This document shows positions 2,881-61,048 of a DNA stretch of 64,000 nucleotides, piece by piece. Below the pieces are notes generated by a model, which did no database searches, was not told where the DNA came from, and saw only the letters and a program-made list of their open reading frames with translations. The stretch's first letter is position 1, and every line of letters starts with the position of its first letter. The position numbers and the translations under genes are program-made. The DNA comes from Deltaproteobacteria bacterium (GTDB lineage Bacteria > Myxococcota_A > UBA9042 > PHBI01), in the NCBI GenBank assembly GCA_020632715.1, contig JACKFA010000002.1, positions 578,122 to 642,121 of the forward strand. Reading direction: 5' to 3'.

Positions 2881-2939
2881 CGACCGGTCAGGTCGGTAAC
2901 CACGGTGTGTCCGAACCGGTCAGGTCGGTAACCACGGAG
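2881..2939. repeat. Tandem direct repeat, 2 units of ~30 bp: ccga(a)ccggtcaggtcggtaaccacgg.
   Basis: Read directly from the sequence: ccgaccggtcaggtcggtaaccacggtgtg is followed by tccgaaccggtcaggtcggtaaccacggag. It sits immediately upstream of palindromic element copy 1. Confidence 0.7.
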
Positions 2940-3023
2940 ACACGGAGACACGGAGGGGGCACGGAGGGCGTGTCATACCTCTGAACCCTCCGTGCTCCTC
3001 CGTGTCCTCCGTGTCTCCGTGGT
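2932..3023. repeat. Palindromic intergenic repeat element, copy 1. A long imperfect GC hairpin with arms ccacggagacacggag / ctccgtgtctccgtgg, followed on the + strand by an A8 run.
   Basis: Inverted arms at 2932-2947 and 3008-3023 around a ~60-nt imperfectly paired core. A second, inverted copy lies at 9013-9094. Located between the leuB stop and the malic enzyme start. Confidence 0.75.
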
Positions 3024-3077
3024 AAAAAAAAGCATGGAATATCGATGCTTATGTCGGTGGCCGCGGCGACGCTGGTG

Positions 3078-4139
3078 TCAGCCCAGCTGCGCGAGCACCA
3101 GGTCCGTCACGGCGCTCGTGCCGAGCTCGCCGCCGAGGTCGACCGTGCGGGCGCCGTTCGCGATGACCGCGTCCACGGCGCGCTCGATGGCGGCCGCCGC
3201 CTCCTCCTGGTGGAGGCTGTGGCGGAGCAGCATCGCCGCCGAGAGGATGGCGCCGATGGGGTTCGCGATGCCCTTCCCGGCGATGTCCGGGGCCGAGCCG
3301 TGCACCGGCTCGTAGAGCCCGGGGCCGGCCGCGCCGAGCGACGCGCTCGGGAGGAGCCCGAGCGACCCCGGGAAGACCGCGGCCTCGTCGGAGAGGATGT
3401 CGCCGAACATGTTCTCGGCGACGATCACGTCGAAGTCCTGCGGGTGCGTCACGAGCCGCATCGCGGTCGAGTCGACCAGCCGATGCTCCACGACGACGCC
3501 CGGGTGCTCCGTCGCGACCTCGTCGACGACCTTCCGCCAGAGCCGCGACGACATCAGCACGTTCGCCTTGTCGACGCTCGTGACCTTGTTGCGGCGCTTC
3601 CCGGCCAGCTCGAAGGCGATGCGCGCGATGCGGCGGATCTCGTGCTCGGCGTACTCGAGCGTGTCCACGCCGCGCCGCCCGGTGGGCGTGTCCTCGATGA
3701 ACTTCGGCTGCCCGAAGTAGATCCCGCCCGTGAGCTCGCGCACGAAGACGAGGTCGACCCCCGCGAGGCGCTCGCTCTTGAGCGGCGAGACCGCGGCGAG
3801 CTCGGGGTACGCCTTCACCGGGCGCAGGTTCGCGAAGAGCTCGAGCCCGCGGCGGAGCCCGAGGAGCCCGGCCTCGGGGCGCACCTTGGCCGTCGGGCCC
3901 TCCCACTTCGGGCCGCCGACGGCGCCGAGGAGCACGGCGTCCGCGGACTCGCAGGCGGCGACTGTCTCGGCGGGCAGGGGGTCGCCGACCTCGTCGATGG
4001 CGTGGCCGCCGACGAGCTGCGGGTCGAGGGTGATGGCGACATCGAACTTGCGCGCGGCGGCGACGAGCACCTGGCGCGCGGCCTCCGTCACCTCGGCGCC
4101 GATACCGTCGCCTGGGAGGAGAACGACTCGTGCGGTCAT
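3078..4139 (-). CDS. leuB: 3-isopropylmalate dehydrogenase
   Basis: 353-aa ORF with MTARVVLLPGDGIGAEV... and NLRPV, LVFVRELTGGIYFG, NMFGDILSDEAA, GSAPDIAGKGIANP. Start ATG at 4139 and stop at 3078 were both checked in the sequence. Confidence 0.95.
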   Translation of the reverse strand: MTARVVLLPGDGIGAEVTEAARQVLVAAARKFDVAITLDPQLVGGHAIDEVGDPLPAETVAACESADAVLLGAVGGPKWEGPTAKVRPEAGLLGLRRGLELFANLRPVKAYPELAAVSPLKSERLAGVDLVFVRELTGGIYFGQPKFIEDTPTGRRGVDTLEYAEHEIRRIARIAFELAGKRRNKVTSVDKANVLMSSRLWRKVVDEVATEHPGVVVEHRLVDSTAMRLVTHPQDFDVIVAENMFGDILSDEAAVFPGSLGLLPSASLGAAGPGLYEPVHGSAPDIAGKGIANPIGAILSAAMLLRHSLHQEEAAAAIERAVDAVIANGARTVDLGGELGTSAVTDLVLAQLG

Positions 4140-4169
4140 GTCAGGGAGCCTTATGGGGTCTGTGCTGCT

Positions 4170-4757
4170 TCAGGGATGCTTTGCTTCGAAAGCGGTGATC
4201 TGCGGGTCGTGGGCGAGCAGGTAGCCGAGCTCGTCGAGGCCCGTGAGGAGGCAGTGGTGGACGAAGTCGTCGAGGGGGAAGGCCGCGCGCTCGCCCGACG
4301 GCAGGACGAGCTCGCGCGCGGGCAGGTCGACCTCGAGCTCGGCCGCCGGGTCGGCCTCGAGCGCGGCCACGACGCGCGCGTGGACCGCCGGCGGGACGAT
4401 GACCGGGAGGAGCCCGTTCTTGTGGGCGTTGTTCCGGAAGATGTCGGCGAAGCTCGTCGCGACGATGGCGCGGAAGCCCCACCCGACGAGCGCCCACGGG
4501 GCGTGCTCGCGCGAGCTCCCGCAGCCGAAGTTGTCGCCCGCGACGAGGATCCGCGCGTCGCGCGCGCCCGGCTGGTTCAGCGCGAACGCCGGGTCCTTCC
4601 GCCAGTCGCAGAAGAGCACCTCGCCGAGCCCGGCCTTGTCGGTGCTCTTGAGGAAGCGGGCCGGGGTGATCTGGTCCGTGTCGATGTTGTCGAGGAGCAC
4701 CCGCACCGCGCGCGAGCGCAGCGGCACCGGGTAGCCGCTCGGGTTCTCCGCGCTCAT
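4170..4757 (-). CDS. leuD: 3-isopropylmalate dehydratase small subunit
   Basis: Internal start [30 protein letters not shown]..., 195 aa, in the frame of ORF 4170..5705. The upstream part of that ORF is Arg-rich junk. The ATG overlaps the leuC stop codon (ATGA). Confidence 0.88.
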
Positions 4758-6181
4758 CGCGCACCTCCCGCGTCGAGGAGGGGCCGCGGATCGGCCACGG
4801 CGCCCGCGACCGCGCTCGCGGCGGCCGTCGCCGGCGACGCGAGGAACGTGCGCGAGCCCGGGCCCTGGCGCCCCTCGAAGTTCCGGTTCGACGTGCTCAC
4901 GGCGTAGCGCCCGGGCGCGAGCATGTCGCCGTTCATCGCGATGCACATCGAGCAGCCCGTCTCGCGCCACTCGGCGCCCGCGGCGAGGAAGGTCTCGTGC
5001 AGCCCCTCGGCCTCGGCGTCGCGCTTGACGGCCTCGCTCCCCGGGACGACCAGCATCCGGACGCCGTCCTTGACCTTCCGCCCGCGGAGGACCGCGGCGG
5101 CCTCGCGCAGATCGGAGAGGCGCGCGTTGGTGCAGGACCCCACGAAGACGACGTCGATGGGCTTGCCGAGGAGGGGCTTGCCCGCCTCGACCTGCATGTA
5201 GTCGAGGGCCTTCCCGAGCGCCGTCCGGCTCGCCGCGTCGGGCATCGCGTCCGGCGACGGCACCGCCTCGTCGACCCCCGCCCCCATGGCCGGGTTCGTG
5301 CCGAACGTGACCATCGGCGAGAGCCGCGCCACGTCGACCGTGATCTCGCGGTCGAAGGTCGCCCCGTCGTCCGTCGGGAGGGCCCGCCAGCGCGCGACGG
5401 CCGCGTCCCAGGCGGCGCCCGCCGGCGCGAGCTCGCGCCCCTGCAGGTAGGCGTAGGTCGTGTCGTCGGGGGCGACCATCCCGGCGCGCGCGCCCGCCTC
5501 GATGCTCATGTTGCAGAGCGTCATCCGCGCCTCCATGGAGAGCCCGCGGACGGCCTCCCCCTGGTACTCGAAGACGCTCCCCGTGCCGCCGCCGATGCCG
5601 ACCTGCGCGATGAGGCGGAGCACCATGTCCTTCGCGCCGACCCCCGCCGGGAGGCGCCCCTCGAAGCGCACGCGCGCGGACTCGGGGCGGCGCTGGAGGA
5701 GGCACTGCGTCGCGAGGACGTGCCCGACCTCGCTCGAGCCGATGCCGAACGCGAGCGCGCCCATGGCGCCGTGCGTCGAGGTGTGGCTGTCGCCGCAGAC
5801 GATGGTCATCCCGGGCTGCGAGAGGCCGAGCTCGGGGCCGATGACGTGGACGATGCCGCGCCGCCGGTCGCCGACCGCGTAGAGGCGCACGCCGTGCTTC
5901 CGGCAGTTCGCCTCGAGGGTCGAGAGCGTCTTCGTCACGACCTCCTCGAGCCCCTGCGCGTACGCGCCGGGGTCGGTCGGCGTGATGTGGTCCATCGTGG
6001 CGACGGTGCGCTCGGGGCGGCGCACCATGAGGCCGCGCTCGTCGAGCGCGAGGAACCCCTGCGCCGAGGTGACCTCGTGCACGAGGTGGAGGTCGACGTA
6101 GAGGACCGCGGGGCGGCCGGGCTCCTGGGCGACGACGTGCGCGTCCCAGACCTTGTCGAAGAGGGTGCGGGGCGCGCTCAC
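4754..6181 (-). CDS. leuC: 3-isopropylmalate dehydratase large subunit
   Basis: Aconitase-family sequence begins at [17 protein letters not shown] (GTG start), in the frame of ORF 4754..7357. The upstream part of that ORF is a frame shadow of leuA. The GTG start overlaps the leuA TGA stop (GTGA at 6178-6181). Confidence 0.88.
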
Positions 6182-8944: not shown

Positions 8945-9012
8945 CGCGCTGCCCCTGCTGTCGTTGGCCGGCGCCAACTGCTTGTTCGTGGATATGAAAG
9001 GCTTTTTTTCAC

Positions 9013-9094
9013 CACGGAGACACGGAGGGCGCGGAGGTGCACGGAGAGCGACGATGCCCCCTCCGTGCTCCTCCGTGTCTCCGTGTCTCCGTGG
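9013..9094. repeat. Palindromic intergenic repeat element, copy 2, inverted relative to copy 1 and preceded on the + strand by a T7 run.
   Basis: Same arms as copy 1 (ccacggagacacggag ... ctccgtgtctccgtgg) at 9013-9028 and 9079-9094, with a similar GC core. Located between the ilvN stop (9140) and the ilvC start. Confidence 0.75.
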
Positions 9095-9139
9095 TCTCGT
9101 TCATCGACCTGCACCGGTTGCGTCGCCGAGCCCCTGGGC

Positions 9140-19534: not shown

Positions 19535-20976
<1,442 letters not shown>

Positions 20977-45233: not shown

Positions 45234-46169
45234 ATGATTCGGAGTGAGGAGCCGCAGGCGCTCTATCCGATGCGTGTCGTGACGCGGCTCACGGGGTTGC
45301 ATCCGGACACGATCCGCGCGTGGGAGCGTCGCTACGACGCGGTGATCCCGCAGCGCACGAACGGGAACACGCGGATGTTCTCGGCGGGGGACGTGCGGCG
45401 GCTGTCGATCCTGCGGGAGCTCGTCGACCATGGGCACGCCATCGGCCACATCGCGTCGCTGAGCGACGAGGCGTTGGCGGTGCTGGTGGAGGAGCACCGG
45501 GCGGAGCGGGCGGCGGCGAGCGCGCGGGCGCTGGGTCAGGTCGTGACGGTGCCGGCGATCGTGAAGCCGTACCTCGGGGCCATCGCGCGGTTCGACGTGA
45601 GGCGGGCGCACGACCTGTTGTCGCGGGCGGCGGCGGTGTTGCCGCCGCGGGAGTTCGTGTTCGACGTGGCGCTGCCGATCCTGAGGACGGTGGGCGAGCG
45701 TTGGAGCAACGAGGAGCTCGGGGTGGCGCAGGAGCACCTGGTGACGGCGCACATCCAGGGGTTGCTCGAGACGTTCGGGCGCTTCCACCCGCACGACGCG
45801 GGGGCGCCGCGCATCGTGGCGACGACGCCGGGCGGTCAGCGGCACGCGATGGGGGTGCTCATCGGGAGCATGCTGGCGGCGGCGCGGGGTCTGGACGTGG
45901 TGTACCTGGGGCCGGACCTGCCGGCGGCGGACATCATCTGGGCGGTGGACGCGAGTGAGGCGCAGGTGCTGCTCCTGGGCCTGATGATGGATCTCGACGA
46001 GCGCGAGACCGAGCAGCTGACAGACCTCCTCGACCGCCTCCCGAGCCGCTGTGAGCCCTGGCTGGGCGTCCCGCCGTACCACACGTTCAGCCACCGTCGA
46101 GCCCGCCGGATGACGGACTTCGAGGCCCTCGAGGTCGCGTTGGTCGAGCTCGCCGCCCGGGCGCGTTAG
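45234..46169 (+). CDS. MerR-family transcriptional regulator with C-terminal cobalamin (B12)-binding domain (CarH/LitR-like)
   Basis: MerR HTH region MRVVTRLTGLHPDTIRAWERRYDAVIPQRTNGNTRMFSAGDVRRLSILREL. B12-binding module with EHLVTAH and GGQRHAMGV (approximating the DxHxxG His-on motif), followed by a Rossmann-like LDVVYLGPDLP... The ATG at 45234 is preceded by GGGAGGAG. Confidence 0.7.
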   Translation: MIRSEEPQALYPMRVVTRLTGLHPDTIRAWERRYDAVIPQRTNGNTRMFSAGDVRRLSILRELVDHGHAIGHIASLSDEALAVLVEEHRAERAAASARALGQVVTVPAIVKPYLGAIARFDVRRAHDLLSRAAAVLPPREFVFDVALPILRTVGERWSNEELGVAQEHLVTAHIQGLLETFGRFHPHDAGAPRIVATTPGGQRHAMGVLIGSMLAAARGLDVVYLGPDLPAADIIWAVDASEAQVLLLGLMMDLDERETEQLTDLLDRLPSRCEPWLGVPPYHTFSHRRARRMTDFEALEVALVELAARAR

Positions 46170-46177
46170 CGGGAGCG

Positions 46178-46224
46178 CCCGCCTCCGCCTCCGCTTCCGC
46201 TTCCGCTTCCGCCTCCGCCTCCGC
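46178..46224. repeat. Hexanucleotide SSR (GCCTCC/GCTTCC)n, ~8 units
   Basis: gcctccgcctccgcttccgcttccgcttccgcctccgcctccgc, immediately after the stop of the CarH-like gene. Inverted partner at 47003-47054. Confidence 0.8.
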
Positions 46225-46593
46225 GCGGTCGGAGTTCGTGGGTGTGATGGGCTGACGTGCCCGCGTGCGGCGGTTCCGGTCAGGGATGTTGACGCGGCTG
46301 GGGCTTGGTCGCGTTCGAGGTTCGCGGCCGCGCCCACCGGCGCCGTCTCGCCACGCCGCTTCGCGTCGTCGGCGAGACGCCGCCTACGGGGAGGGCCGTT
46401 TCGTTGATGCCTGATTCTGGCAGCGTGCTCGGGCCCCGCAAGGCCGAGCCGTCCTCGCCGTCCTCGCGGCTTCGCCGCTCCGGGCGGCTCCGGGCGGTGG
46501 CCGCTTCGCGGCCAGCCTTGCAGGGCCCTGCGCGCGCTGCCCTTGGGGGTGCATCAACGGAAACCGCCGGGCACACCGGCAAAGGAAATCGCC

Positions 46594-46911
46594 ATGTTGC
46601 GCATCTACTCGGACGCTCTCCAGGTCACCAAGGCCGCCGTCGCCCTCTCCCGCCAACTCGCCGCCAGCGACGCGACGCTCGCCGATCAGCTCCGCCGCGC
46701 CGCCATCTCCATCCCCCTCAACATCGCCGAGGGCTCCGGCGTCATCGGCGGCAACCAGCGCCTCCGCTACAGCACCGCGCTCGGCTCCGCGTGCGAGGTC
46801 CGCTCCTGCGTCGACGTGGCCGCCACCTGCGGCTACTGCGGCAGCCTCGATCCCGTCGCGGCGGACCGCCTCGACAAGGTCATCGCCACCCTCTTCAAGC
46901 TCACCCGCTGA
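46594..46911 (+). CDS. Four-helix-bundle protein (TIGR02436 family; the type often found in 23S rRNA intervening sequences)
   Basis: 105 aa with MLRIYSDALQVTKAAVALSRQLAASDATLADQLRRAAISIPLNIAEGSGVIGGNQRLRYSTALGSACEV..., which matches the family signature (R-AA-SI--NIAEG ... A-GS--E). AAAGGAAA SD upstream. Confidence 0.7.
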   Translation: MLRIYSDALQVTKAAVALSRQLAASDATLADQLRRAAISIPLNIAEGSGVIGGNQRLRYSTALGSACEVRSCVDVAATCGYCGSLDPVAADRLDKVIATLFKLTR

Positions 46912-47002
46912 GTCACCCGTGCCGGCGAGCGCCGGCACCCCTACGCACCGCGACGTGGCTCGTCCGCGGGCAGGAGCGCCATCGAGCCTCGTATGCATCC
47001 GC

Positions 47003-47054
47003 GCGGAGGCGGAGGCGGAGGCGGAGGCGGAAGCGGAGGCGGAGGCGGAGGCGG
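47003..47054. repeat. Hexanucleotide SSR (GCGGAG)n, ~9 units, reverse complement of the 46178-46224 array
   Basis: gcggaggcggaggcggaggcggaggcggaagcggaggcggaggcggaggcgg. Lies between the convergent stops of the four-helix-bundle gene and the TerB-like gene. Confidence 0.8.
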
Positions 47055-47055
47055 C

Positions 47056-47445
47056 CTACAGCTCGTACTCGATGACCATCAACTCCTCAGGAGGCAAATC
47101 CAGCATATCGGCGACCTCCTCGAGGAAGGCGTCCTCCTCGTCGACGACGACGCCGTCGGCGTCGAGCACGCGCAGCACCGCGCACAAGAGCGCCCGCCGC
47201 TGGGTCAGCCCCTGGAGGCCGAGCGCGTCGACCGCCGCCTCCACGTCGATGAGGCCCGCGTCGCGGTCCGCGATGTGCTTCGCGACCTGCGCCGGGAGCT
47301 CCTCCCGCCCCATCGCCTCGCGCACCGCAGCCTCGATGGTCCGCGCCTCGACCTCCTCGTACACGTGGTCCGAGTGGGCCGCCGCCAACAGGATGTCAGC
47401 CAGCGCGCACGCCTGCTCCGTGGTCTCGATGACCATCCGCCCCAT
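47056..47445 (-). CDS. TerB-domain (tellurite-resistance TerB-like) small protein
   Basis: Internal start MGRMVIETTEQACALADILLAAAHSDHVYEEVE...LLCAVLRVLDADGVVVDEEDAFLEEVADMLDLPPEEL (129 aa). GGAGG lies 6 nt upstream of ATG 47445. Confidence 0.5.
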   Translation of the reverse strand: MGRMVIETTEQACALADILLAAAHSDHVYEEVEARTIEAAVREAMGREELPAQVAKHIADRDAGLIDVEAAVDALGLQGLTQRRALLCAVLRVLDADGVVVDEEDAFLEEVADMLDLPPEELMVIEYEL

Positions 47446-47721: not shown

Positions 47722-48636
47722 TCACGCCGACGTCGACGCGCGCACCCCCGCCGCGAACGCCCGCAGCTCGCCCATCGAGTCGAGGCGGTGCACCCGCGCT
47801 GGCAGCGGCCCGAGCGGTGGCACGCCGCGACCCCCGACGACCACGTCCCCCCGCCACGGCGCGACCGCCGCGGCGAGGCTCGCGAGCTCCGCCTCGAGGG
47901 CGCGCGCGCTCGCCGGGGGCACCGAGCACGTCAGCCACAGCACGCGCGGACGGTAGCGCGCCGCGGCGTGGGTGAGCGCGGCGATCGGCGTGCTCGCGCC
48001 GAGGTTCCGGTCGACGAAGCCCGCCTCCGCGAGCACGAGGCTCGCCATGAGGGAGGGCAGCAGGTACGGGTCATCCGGGGACGCGCCACCGAGCGCGACC
48101 GGCGACCCGGCCGGCGCGGGCTCGAGGAGCGCCCGCAGCTCGGCGAACGCGTGGACGCACATGTCGGTGGCGCGGTGCTCGATGAAGATGCCGGCGTCGT
48201 CGTGGTGCCAGAGCTCGCCCACGCGCGTCATCACCTCGCGGACAGGGCCGTCGCAGAGGGCCGCGAGCGTCCAGCCCCCGACGTAGAGCGCGAGCAGAAT
48301 CGCCCGCGCCGCCTCCGGCTCGTCCTCGTGCACCGCGCGCCACAGCGCCTCCGTCGCCGCGCCCGCCGCGACCGCGTCCTCGGGCGCGACGGACACCTCG
48401 GCCGGCAGCGCCGCGCCGACCAGGGCGGCCGGGAGCCGCACCGCCGCGCCCGTCCGACGCACGAAGCGCACCGCCTCGGCGAGCGCGATGCGGCGGTGGC
48501 CGCCGGCCGTCTTCACCGCGGCGAGCGCCCCGTCGTCGACCCAGCGCTTGACGGACGACTCGGAGACCCCCAGCGCCCGGCCGAGCTCACGCGGGGAGAG
48601 GACCGGCCCGGGCCCGCTCTGGGAGTTCAGGGTCAT
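47722..48636 (-). CDS. Excisionase-family HTH DNA-binding protein with C-terminal B12-binding-like domain lacking the canonical His (CarA-like analogue)
   Basis: N-terminal LSPRELGRALGVSESSVKRWVDDGALAAVKTAGGHRRIA is an excisionase/MerR-type HTH. The C-terminus follows the B12-binding Rossmann pattern (VALGGASPDDPYLLPSLMASLVLAEAGFVDRNLG...VVVGG) but has DDPY where DxHxxG would sit. Confidence 0.55.
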   Translation of the reverse strand: MTLNSQSGPGPVLSPRELGRALGVSESSVKRWVDDGALAAVKTAGGHRRIALAEAVRFVRRTGAAVRLPAALVGAALPAEVSVAPEDAVAAGAATEALWRAVHEDEPEAARAILLALYVGGWTLAALCDGPVREVMTRVGELWHHDDAGIFIEHRATDMCVHAFAELRALLEPAPAGSPVALGGASPDDPYLLPSLMASLVLAEAGFVDRNLGASTPIAALTHAAARYRPRVLWLTCSVPPASARALEAELASLAAAVAPWRGDVVVGGRGVPPLGPLPARVHRLDSMGELRAFAAGVRASTSA

Positions 48637-59587: not shown

Positions 59588-61048
59588 ATGCGTACCCGAC
59601 CCGCCGTGAAGCCCCTCCTCGCGCTCCTCGCGCTCGCCTCGCTCTCCGCCGCCGCCGCGTGTGGCGACGACGGCGGCGCGAGCGGCTTCGTCGCGGACAC
59701 GGCCTCCGCCGCGGACGCGGACACGGCCTCCGCCGCGGACACCGCCGCCGCCGACGCGGTCGCCGACGCCGCCTCCGACGCCGACGCGGTCGCCGACGCC
59801 GACGCCGACGCCGACGCCGCCGCCGCGGACACCGCCACCGTCGCCGACACCGCCACCGTCGCCGACACCGCCACCGCCTCCGACGCCGCCTCCGACGCCG
59901 CCACCGACACCTCGAAGGCCGACACGAGCGCCACCGCCGACACGGACACCGCCGGCCCCGCCACCGGCTGCCCGCGCGCGCTCCGCCCCGCCGAGGGCGC
60001 CCGGTACTTCGTGGTCTCCTACCCCTACGACGTCGACGAGGCCCTCGGCTACGGCTACCGCGTCGGCACCCTCGCCGCCGACGGCGCGAGCATCGACATC
60101 GCGGGCGAGCGCTTCCGCCTCGGCGACCGCGCCTACTTCGGCAAGATCGTCTTCACCCCCGACGGCGAGATCGGCGTCGTCGCCACCGATCGCGGGAAGC
60201 TCGCGGTCTTCTCCCTCGACGCGGCCGGCCACCCGACCGTCGTCCACGCGGCGCTCGACGCGGGCATGTACGCCGGCACCCTCGAGATGGCCCCGGACGG
60301 CGCCCAGGTCTACGTCGCCGACACCGAGTGGCCGAACACCGGCGGCGGCATCTACGCGGTCCCCATCGGCTGCGACGGCACCCTCGGCGAGGCGCGCCTC
60401 GTGCTCTCGGCGAAGCTCCCGAACGGCTTCCGCCTCGTCCCCGGCGACCCGAGCCGCGGCGTCCTCATGGGCCTCGAGCTCGCCGGCGCCCCCGCGGGCG
60501 CCACGGCCCACCTCCTCGACGTCGGCGCGACGCCGACCGCGCGCCTCGCGAGCCTCGACGTCTTCGGCGACACCGCGTTCGTCCTCGGCGGCGCGACCTT
60601 CACGGGCGACGGTGCCTACTACCTCGCCGGCGACATCAACGAGCTCGAGAACGGCGACCGCCTCGCCATCGTGCCGCGCGACGGCGCCGCGCTCGGGCCC
60701 GCCACCGTCCTCACGGTGCGCGACCCCATCGACGTCGTCCCGTCGCCCTACGGCCGCGCCGCCATGGTGGTCAGCGGCTACGGGAACAAGGTCGTCTACG
60801 TGCATCAGGACGCCGGCGGCGCCTGGGTCGCCGACGAGCCGCCCGCCTTCGTCGGGGCCCGCCCGCAGCTCCCCGCCGCCGCCGCCGTCGTCACGCGCGG
60901 CGCCGCGAAGGGCGCGGTCGTCCTCGCCGAGAACGTCGCCGTCCGCCTCATGCGCTTCTCCCCCGAGGGCGGCGTCGTCGACGTCGGCGCCGTCGGCACG
61001 GGGGGCGGCAACGCCGGCATCGTGGGGATCCTCGGGCTCCAGCCGTGA
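59588..61048 (+). CDS. Lipoprotein with a low-complexity Asp/Ala/Thr linker and a beta-propeller-like domain. Hypothetical, possibly lactonase-like.
   Basis: Lipoprotein signal MRTRPAVKPLLALLALASLSAAAAC, then (ADTAS/ADA)n low complexity, then repeated beta-strand blocks (VYVADTEWPNTGGGIYAVPIG...). Confidence 0.55.
   Translation: MRTRPAVKPLLALLALASLSAAAACGDDGGASGFVADTASAADADTASAADTAAADAVADAASDADAVADADADADAAAADTATVADTATVADTATASDAASDAATDTSKADTSATADTDTAGPATGCPRALRPAEGARYFVVSYPYDVDEALGYGYRVGTLAADGASIDIAGERFRLGDRAYFGKIVFTPDGEIGVVATDRGKLAVFSLDAAGHPTVVHAALDAGMYAGTLEMAPDGAQVYVADTEWPNTGGGIYAVPIGCDGTLGEARLVLSAKLPNGFRLVPGDPSRGVLMGLELAGAPAGATAHLLDVGATPTARLASLDVFGDTAFVLGGATFTGDGAYYLAGDINELENGDRLAIVPRDGAALGPATVLTVRDPIDVVPSPYGRAAMVVSGYGNKVVYVHQDAGGAWVADEPPAFVGARPQLPAAAAVVTRGAAKGAVVLAENVAVRLMRFSPEGGVVDVGAVGTGGGNAGIVGILGLQP

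Follow-up and report, generated by a model that had tools for sequence, protein, structure and literature searches.

Why genes of the S23p family should reside in the intervening sequences (IVSs) of 23S rRNA has been asked since the 1990s. To our knowledge, this family, whose members form a four-helix bundle (4HB), is very common and often multi-copy, and its sole known function is that of Avd, the accessory factor of diversity-generating retroelements (DGRs). The question returns in a different setting in the 64-kb stretch of DNA from a Deltaproteobacteria bacterium that is analysed here (the window): a 4HB gene lies between the genes of a CarH-like regulator and a TerB-like protein, bracketed by two inverted arrays of a hexanucleotide repeat (Table 1). 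What is this segment, and how did it get there? In our judgement, positions 46184-47060 are probably an inserted, non-autonomous cassette of the 23S rRNA IVS type, placed between two protein genes. The segment shares arms, open reading frame (ORF) family and size with IVSs, yet is not located in rRNA, and is therefore read as an IVS-type cassette outside rRNA.

The empty site and the parts of the cassette

Insertion is indicated by a relative, represented by the Logan contigs L083-L088, in which the gene order is the same as in the window (ATP-grasp, peptidase S58, CarH-like, TerB-like) and the CarH-like protein is 81% identical to that of the window. Just 22 bp, TAGcgagggtccgccgcgggtcgcgTCA, separate the stop codons of the CarH-like and TerB-like genes in this relative, and by blastn the nucleotide homology of its locus to the window ends at 46183 and restarts at 47061. 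Given the conserved order and these breakpoints, the 877 bp are an indel of exactly the arrays plus their payload. The initial annotation had proposed that arrays and gene may form a cassette, which an empty site in related genomes would reveal, and this comparison is positive. Two CarH-like loci at a greater distance, with identities of 47% and 58%, have downstream spacers of 26 bp and 118 bp that contain no 4HB gene, so that an insertion in the lineage of the window is the parsimonious direction.

Two further contigs, L091 and L092, belong to essentially the same species (99-100% identical) and have the left arm as in the window; L092 ends inside the array. The identity of L091 (GCA_020430565.1 JAGQJQ010000077.1) to the window, 99-100%, extends over 5.3 kb. 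At 5300-5430 (compared with the window from 46545 onward), directly after the leader described below, it switches abruptly to a different, P0002-type 4HB ORF (73% amino acid identity), and the contig ends 70 nt after the switch: this is either a real exchange of the ORF at the leader or a chimeric assembly. On contig L089 (5945-6320), the position equivalent to the cassette, downstream of a 57%-identical CarH-like orthologue, is occupied by a different kind of repeat, in which ~66 bp are repeated in tandem six times before a homopolymer-rich contig end.

The arms of the cassette are microsatellites. Tandem Repeats Finder (TRF) reports (CCGCCT/CCGCTT)7.7 on the left (46179-46224, score 71), starting 9 nt past the stop codon of the CarH-like gene (46167-46169), and (GCGGAG/GCGGAA)8.7 on the right (47003-47054, score 97), stopping 1 nt short of the stop codon of the TerB-like gene (47056-47058). 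A search for inverted repeats pairs 46179-46228 with 46999-47048 over 50 nt at 96% complementarity and a spacing of 770 nt (pairs I1/I2); the inner end of both arms is the palindrome CCGCGCGG. Both searches agree with the initial annotation on the position of the arrays and on their reverse-complement relation. In the predicted RNA fold of the whole cassette, the arms form a closing stem of 50 bp. Cruciform extrusion in double-stranded DNA is improbable with 770 bp separating them. An 18-mer probe of three units (up to two mismatches) has 14 matches in the window, compared to 0.11 expected, and 12 of the 14 lie inside the two arrays. With a strict period-6 detector, one further array is found in the 64 kb (59783-59830); it lies within an Asp/Ala-rich repeat that reads as coding and is covered by several long ORFs.

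The payload between the arms had been described as a TIGR02436-type 4HB gene, and profile searches confirm this: the protein is a member of PF05635 (3e-16, 60 bits, cut-off 33.8) as well as of TIGR02436 (3.8e-15, 56 bits, cut-off 24). It matches PDB entry 2gsc by sequence (3.4e-7) and contains the signature motif of the family, RxxxSxxxNxxE (PMC3936711), as R35, S39, N43 and E46 within LRRAAISIPLNIAEG. The AlphaFold2 model of the monomer (pLDDT 96.3) has predicted helices at residues 4-22, 27-49, 53-78 and 87-104 and aligns in Foldseek with 2gsc (Xcc0516; TM 0.82), 2rld (BT_0352; 0.81) and Avd (4dwl/8ube; 0.70). A further mark of this family is a homopentameric ring. Translation would start at the ATG at 46594, which is preceded by AAGGA 8 nt upstream. 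Among the defence-system profiles of PADLOC, no match to the protein was found.

Between the 5' arm and the gene lies a second conserved component. Every Polyangiales copy of the 4HB gene has an upstream element of ~110-170 nt, the 3' end of which is located ~45-50 nt before the ATG. For this leader in the window, a three-way junction is predicted (-116 kcal/mol, z -4.4), with one hairpin formed by (GCCGUCCUC)2 pairing with (GCUCCGGGCG)2, a second one formed by GGCCGCUUCGCGGCC, and inner helices that repeat a CCGUSCUC / GCUCCGSGCGG module with conserved U.G pairs, a structure that favours a sense-strand RNA. The RNAalifold consensus of 28 sequences aligned with MAFFT has an outer stem of 25 pairs, with compensatory changes on both sides of the pair in 18 of them; one U.G pair is invariant in all 28 sequences. 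Paired cells make up 95%, compared to 72.7% in shuffles, and the covariation score is 0.509, compared to 0.116 in shuffles and 0.05-0.09 in slid controls. A covariance model of the leader has ~107 sense-strand matches (38-122 bits). In nearly all cases, a 4HB gene that tblastn recognises follows directly downstream; the remaining matches face a truncated partner gene (L074) or are followed by no recognised 4HB gene (L067). Antisense scores at the same places reach only 26-37 bits. The model has a single match in the window (93.7 bits) and none in the empty-site loci. Rfam 15 gives no relevant match at E values up to 10 over 45900-47300, and none at gathering thresholds in the whole window. On the evidence of its alignment, the leader is a structured RNA motif that covaries strongly, and it appears not to have been described. 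A scan of the cassette for sigma-70 promoters found nothing, which is uninformative at 75% G+C. The 3' hairpin followed by CCTACGC is common to the window copy and the P0002-type copy, and the 5' spacer and 3' tail of the window copy have no similarity to other 4HB loci.

Table 1. Features of the cassette and of its host genes (window coordinates)
Feature	Position	Strand	Description	Basis
Left host gene	45234..46169	+	CarH-like MerR/B12-binding regulator, 311 aa; identical to P0121	Pfam MerR_1 and B12-binding_2
Whole indel relative to the L083 empty site	46184..47060	.	877 bp versus 15 unaligned bp	blastn breakpoints and junction sequence
Left arm	46179..46228	+	(CCGCCT/CCGCTT)n hexanucleotide array, then palindrome CCGCGCGG	TRF and inverted-repeat pairs I1/I2
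Spacer private to the lineage of the window	46229..46414	+	Imperfect hairpin 46325-46398	Inverted-repeat pair I11
Conserved structured leader	46415..46544	+	Outer stem 46419-46445 / 46515-46541	Fold, covariation, covariance model
Short hairpin, ribosome-binding site AAGGA, then ATG	46545..46593	+		Sequence and fold
4HB gene	46594..46911	+	105 aa, S23p / Xcc0516 / Avd family	PF05635, TIGR02436, PDB 2gsc, AlphaFold2, Foldseek
Terminator-like hairpin	46917..46936	+	GTGCCGGCGAGCGCCGGCAC, then CCTACGC	Sequence comparison
Right arm	46999..47054	+	CCGCGCGG, then (GCGGAG/GCGGAA)n, reverse complement of the left arm	TRF and pairs I1/I2
Right host gene	47056..47445	-	TerB-like, 129 aa; orthologue in L083 also 129 aa	PF05099 at 3e-8

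Recurrence in Polyangiales and in other phyla

The association of 4HB genes with repeat arrays extends well beyond the window. A scan of species-representative genomes (one genome per species, many of them metagenome-assembled genomes, MAGs) returned more than 364 relatives, of which the best 80 loci were kept; they come from Polyangium, Sorangium, Sandaracinaceae and Nannocystis as well as from many MAGs. Five to ten or more copies are carried by several of the genomes, and convergent pairs of 4HB genes are present at many loci. Among phages, the Polyangiales subfamily has no match, and among plasmids a single distant one, in Nostoc. Arrays with a period of 6, or multiples of 6, adjoin the 4HB gene in nearly every Polyangiales locus. 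Over 81 Polyangiales loci, the strict detector found 104 period-6 arrays in the 87 kb that lie no further than 500 bp from a 4HB gene, compared to 20 arrays in the 335 kb beyond, i.e., 1.19 versus 0.06 arrays per kb or a ~20-fold enrichment. These densities rule out a generic genome-wide microsatellite and uphold the tie between arrays and gene family that the initial annotation had suggested.

Within one genome, the modules are dispersed repeats that are 75-92% identical to each other. Their similarity ends at the arrays, and dispersed copies with defined borders are thereby observed in the related Polyangiales genomes; in the 64 kb sampled from the window's own genome, one leader/4HB copy is present. 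Each lineage has repeat units of its own (p < 0.0005 in a permutation test): units agree within one mismatch in 81% of comparisons between different loci of the same genome and in 31% between genomes, and the unit of the window, AGGCGG/AAGCGG, is of the Polyangium type. Paralogues in one genome have dN/dS ratios of 0.01-0.17 at dS 0.14-0.66 and are thus under strong purifying selection. Where Sorangium species share an orthologous locus (hutI, 4HB pair, tex), the array positions are fixed and the borders conserved, with differing copy numbers and unit variants, and Chondromyces has hutI, NUDIX and tex without a 4HB gene. In three Sorangium loci (L021, L026 and L036; ~2560-2770 and 3900-4170), the units keep CCG and vary in the last three bases mostly by transitions (CCGCGT, CCGTGT, CCGCAT, CCGTAT), as would be expected if C-to-T changes of the CpG type spread along an array. 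Many draft contigs, such as L047, L048, L073, L080, L044 and L092, end at most a few hundred bases from a 4HB cassette or inside an array. Short-read assemblies of Polyangiales genomes evidently often break at 4HB modules, which is of practical importance for work on myxobacterial genomes.

The same layout is present in other phyla. On a Nostoc plasmid, a 4HB ORF is preceded by AGGGGAAAAGGGAAAAGGGG... and followed by its reverse complement. Together with 12 loci found with the Nostoc protein as query, this gives a small sample of 13 loci, all of them on plasmids. Judged against shuffled controls, which here and in Polyangiales preserved mononucleotide composition only, inverted similarity of the flanks is significant in 12 of the 13 loci (z 5.8-17.5; Cyanobacteria, Bacteroidota, Gemmatimonadota and Alphaproteobacteria) and direct similarity in just two. 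The arms are tandem 6-8-mers of 22-57 nt that usually abut the ORF, with units such as GGTTTAA/GGTTCAA in Riemerella, GGAGGGCA in Gemmatirosa, GAGGACG/GATGACA in Azospirillum, and AGTCAGG, AGGTGAC, TTAGCTG, AAAAGGG or GGAGATA-like heptamers in Cyanobacteria. In 10 of 12 loci, purines predominate in the 5' arm, which is also rich in words resembling Shine-Dalgarno sequences. Several cassettes lie between same-strand genes of an operon, for instance between cas10 and cmr3 or between cas6 and cas4. On three cyanobacterial plasmids (L102, L103, L110), 4HB cassettes are located inside CRISPR-Cas operons; the family was reported earlier to turn up in cas loci, and such cassettes probably explain its earlier label as 'cas-associated'. 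In two homologous Nostoc plasmid operons, the flanks of which are 95-99.7% identical, the cassettes differ and so do the gene junctions that they occupy, each cassette having a clean empty site in the other operon (TAGGTTATG and GGTAATGGG); the borders show a possible 3-nt duplication of ATG or a duplication of ~10 nt. Presence/absence polymorphism with conserved flanks, a general mark of non-autonomous mobile elements, is thus observed between the window and L083 and also in Nostoc.

The recurrence of a gene between repeat arms across phyla points to miniature mobile elements of a kind that has hardly been described. A bolder version, which we regard as rather unlikely, is that PF05635 genes with tandem-repeat arms are a distinct multi-phylum class of such elements, of which the 23S rRNA IVS would be the special case that was noticed first. 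These elements would insert at gene junctions and in RNA helices, and their arms (hexamers in Polyangiales, heptamers like the short tandemly repeated repetitive (STRR) sequences in Cyanobacteria) would be made or maintained by the mechanism of the element itself. An Avd-like protein and a structured RNA, such as the Polyangiales leader, could form a ribonucleoprotein for processing or mobility, possibly together with a host reverse transcriptase. The present findings also suggest a possible origin for some lineage-specific intergenic microsatellites, including the heptamer arrays of Cyanobacteria.

Possible roles of the arms and competing explanations

For an IVS-type cassette, the arms could act at two levels. 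In a read-through transcript, they would pair as a duplex of ~50 bp around the ORF, which is the geometry of the IVS stems that are cut by RNase III, and a cut would free the cassette RNA from host transcripts. As DNA, the arms, which are long and identical within a genome, might double as recombination homology for the spread, inversion and loss of cassettes; this is circumstantially supported by the module borders, the shared units, the duplicates in L022 described below and the extra arrays nearby. They would turn over quickly by slippage. By analogy with Avd, which binds DGR RNA, the 4HB protein may bind its own leader RNA, and this binding would serve autoregulation or form a ribonucleoprotein. 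The cassette itself does not encode the enzyme by which it would be moved.

A number of observations weigh against this interpretation. Pairing of the arms in RNA and cleavage by RNase III rest on a predicted fold and on the analogy to IVSs. Moreover, flanking similarity around the 64 complete single 4HB genes of Polyangiales is inverted in 7, direct in 17 and without significance in 40; around the 17 gene pairs, it is inverted in 2, direct in 9 and neither in 6. Direct arrays are commoner than inverted ones, an inverted stem is therefore no requirement in this order, although it is the rule in the other phyla, and on these counts it cannot be the general function of the arms in Polyangiales, where arrays may also be one-sided. 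Of the initial proposal of a "cassette or recombination module", the cassette stands, on account of the empty site, whereas the arms would be no more than putative mediators of insertion or excision. The orientation of the arrays shows no relation to that of the 4HB gene or of its neighbours. At the locus itself, no clear target-site duplication is visible at the 80% identity of the flanks, and the genes beside the cassette include none for a recombinase, a transposase or a reverse transcriptase. The source is a 1.35-Mb contig of a myxobacterial MAG, and such repeats are places where assemblies break and may be joined wrongly. Finally, the comparison of the window gene with its closest relative, the P0002-type copy (L001 81-395), gives a dN/dS of 0.86, and the window protein has Cys in LGSAREV where 27 of 31 relatives have Arg; constraint on this particular copy may be relaxed.

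Whether arms are inverted or direct showed no pattern with respect to the direction of the genes on either side, as judged by a GC3-based gene calling that is patchy. The idea that the arrays serve Rho utilisation or insulation, being C-rich for incoming transcripts, was rejected: it fits the window and L022 and fails generally, since among 21 arrays with a neighbour pointing toward them, 5 are C-rich inward and 13 G-rich inward.

A simpler explanation is that the arrays contribute nothing to mobility, RNA processing or regulation and are by-products of insertion, i.e., microsatellites that arose by slippage in neutral border DNA or on short seeds of the host, such as the CCGCC|GCGG palindrome in the empty site, and expand until they reach functional sequence. 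This would account for the extension of the arrays up to the stop codons of both neighbours, for the resemblance of the empty-site spacer CCGCCGCGGGTCGCG to one or two repeat units, for orientations that are unrelated to genes, and for the quick drift of copy number and unit variants at orthologous loci. However, neutral seeding predicts units that are specific to each locus, and they are common to the loci of one genome. The arrays also persist at orthologous Sorangium loci across species, and the arm layout recurs in four other phyla, consistently inverted and usually with the purine-rich arm 5'. We therefore regard an origin as mere by-products as unlikely, if the best of the competing explanations.

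Somewhat less probable still is a module driven by DNA recombination, in which the suggestion of the initial annotation is made precise: arrays of the same unit would be RecA-dependent substrates, direct arms leading to excision and inverted arms, as in the window, to inversion, in addition to re-integration. As same-unit arrays at different loci would recombine with each other, no dedicated enzyme would be needed. A single genome indeed has such arrays at many of its loci, they are the places where the homology of dispersed modules ends, and extra same-unit arrays are located 0.7-2.5 kb away in several loci. In Polyangium jinanense (L022 3363-4140), a lower-GC gene for a predicted lipoprotein of 125 amino acids lies between direct duplicates of the array plus 17 nt (GGTCTAGCGTTTCTACC), the layout expected as the product of Campbell-type integration within an array, and a possible inversion among the Polyangium loci L017, L030 and L034 is seen in that Polyangium fumosum and Polyangium sp. 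15x6 carry the cassette in different orientations relative to an orthologous flank. On the other hand, the L083 empty site offers no array to recombine with, and the arms of the window are short (46-52 bp). In the other phyla, arms of 22-57 nt that are inverted and abut the ORF would allow inversion and not excision, and the clean insertions at Nostoc gene junctions look site-specific or transpositional. The last alternative, an ancestral cassette that was deleted in the L083 lineage without any insertion or need for mobility, is compatible with the one clean presence/absence comparison available for this locus and is very improbable in view of the two outgroup spacers without a 4HB gene, the dispersed and multi-copy family, and the reciprocal Nostoc empty sites, which show that family members insert.

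The surroundings of the cassette contain further features. Immediately beyond the TerB-like gene lies a second CarH-like gene, so that two genes of this type (MerR or excisionase-type helix-turn-helix plus B12-binding), at 45234-46169 and 47722-48636 on opposite strands, flank the TerB-like gene. The Pfam domains of the left host gene and of the TerB-like gene agree with the labels in the initial annotation, and the match of the left host protein to NF052513 is sub-threshold (112.8 bits, cut-off 400). Two hairpin copies in the window (2925-3030 and 9010-9098) are built of octamers in inverted arrays, (CACGGAGA)n ... (TCTCCGTG/CCTCCGTG)n, and lie beside a run of A or T; they look like bidirectional terminators or REP-like elements. 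A 32-nt tandem duplication (2873-2937) adjoins the first of them, and a long 99/198-bp tandem repeat rich in GCCGTC-type hexamers (19599-20019, score 457-578) lies in apparent coding sequence.

Relation to known systems

The 4HB protein has the fold of Avd (TM 0.70) at a sequence identity of only ~10%. Avd is bound to a structured RNA together with a reverse transcriptase, according to the titles of PDB entries 8ube/8ub7. In contrast to a DGR, the cassette has neither a reverse transcriptase nor a pair of template and variable repeats nearby: the neighbours of the cassette are the CarH-like, TerB-like, second CarH-like, peptidase S58 and ATP-grasp genes, and no long repeat pairs other than the arms were found around it.

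Repeats similar to miniature inverted-repeat transposable elements (MITEs), such as Correia, ERIC and RUP, resemble the cassette in being short, non-autonomous and intergenic and in having inverted ends. The spacers into which these repeats insert are intergenic or intercistronic, and transcription of the neighbours includes them. The cassette differs from them in that it carries a conserved, selected protein gene and in that its ends are tandem repeats instead of unique terminal inverted repeats. The arms of the cyanobacterial 4HB genes are tandem heptamers of the STRR type, and searches of the accessible literature revealed no link of STRR arrays to 4HB genes. In the same literature, which leaves out most subscription papers and the family notes of databases, neither repeat-flanked 4HB genes outside rRNA nor the leader were found, and a prior mention is possible.

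The closest counterpart is provided by the IVSs in the 23S rRNA of Leptospira, Coxiella, Brucella and others, which likewise comprise ~0.4-0.9 kb with terminal inverted repeats around an ORF of the S23p family. The IVS of Coxiella has a 28-bp terminal stem that is cut by RNase III, an S23p ORF, and, upstream of this ORF, tandem heptamers (GACAGAT) whose number varies between strains (PMC4990558); this heptamer is a rotation of the GATGACA found in the Azospirillum arm. In the window, the terminal inverted repeats (50 nt, 96%) are likewise predicted to form the closing stem of the fold. The differences are equally clear. The window cassette lies between protein genes and outside any rRNA gene, as follows from the absence of any Rfam family from the window, its arms are pure microsatellites of 46-52 nt, and an additional covarying leader of ~130 nt is placed between the 5' arm and the ORF. 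Whereas the Coxiella ORF was reported as decaying and probably not expressed (PMC4990558), the Polyangiales copies are multi-copy and, with the low dN/dS of their paralogues, are maintained genes under purifying selection. With the layout of repeat arms found outside rRNA in at least five phyla, together with clean empty sites, the rRNA IVS may be seen anew, as one of the sites at which a selfish cassette of a general kind has landed.

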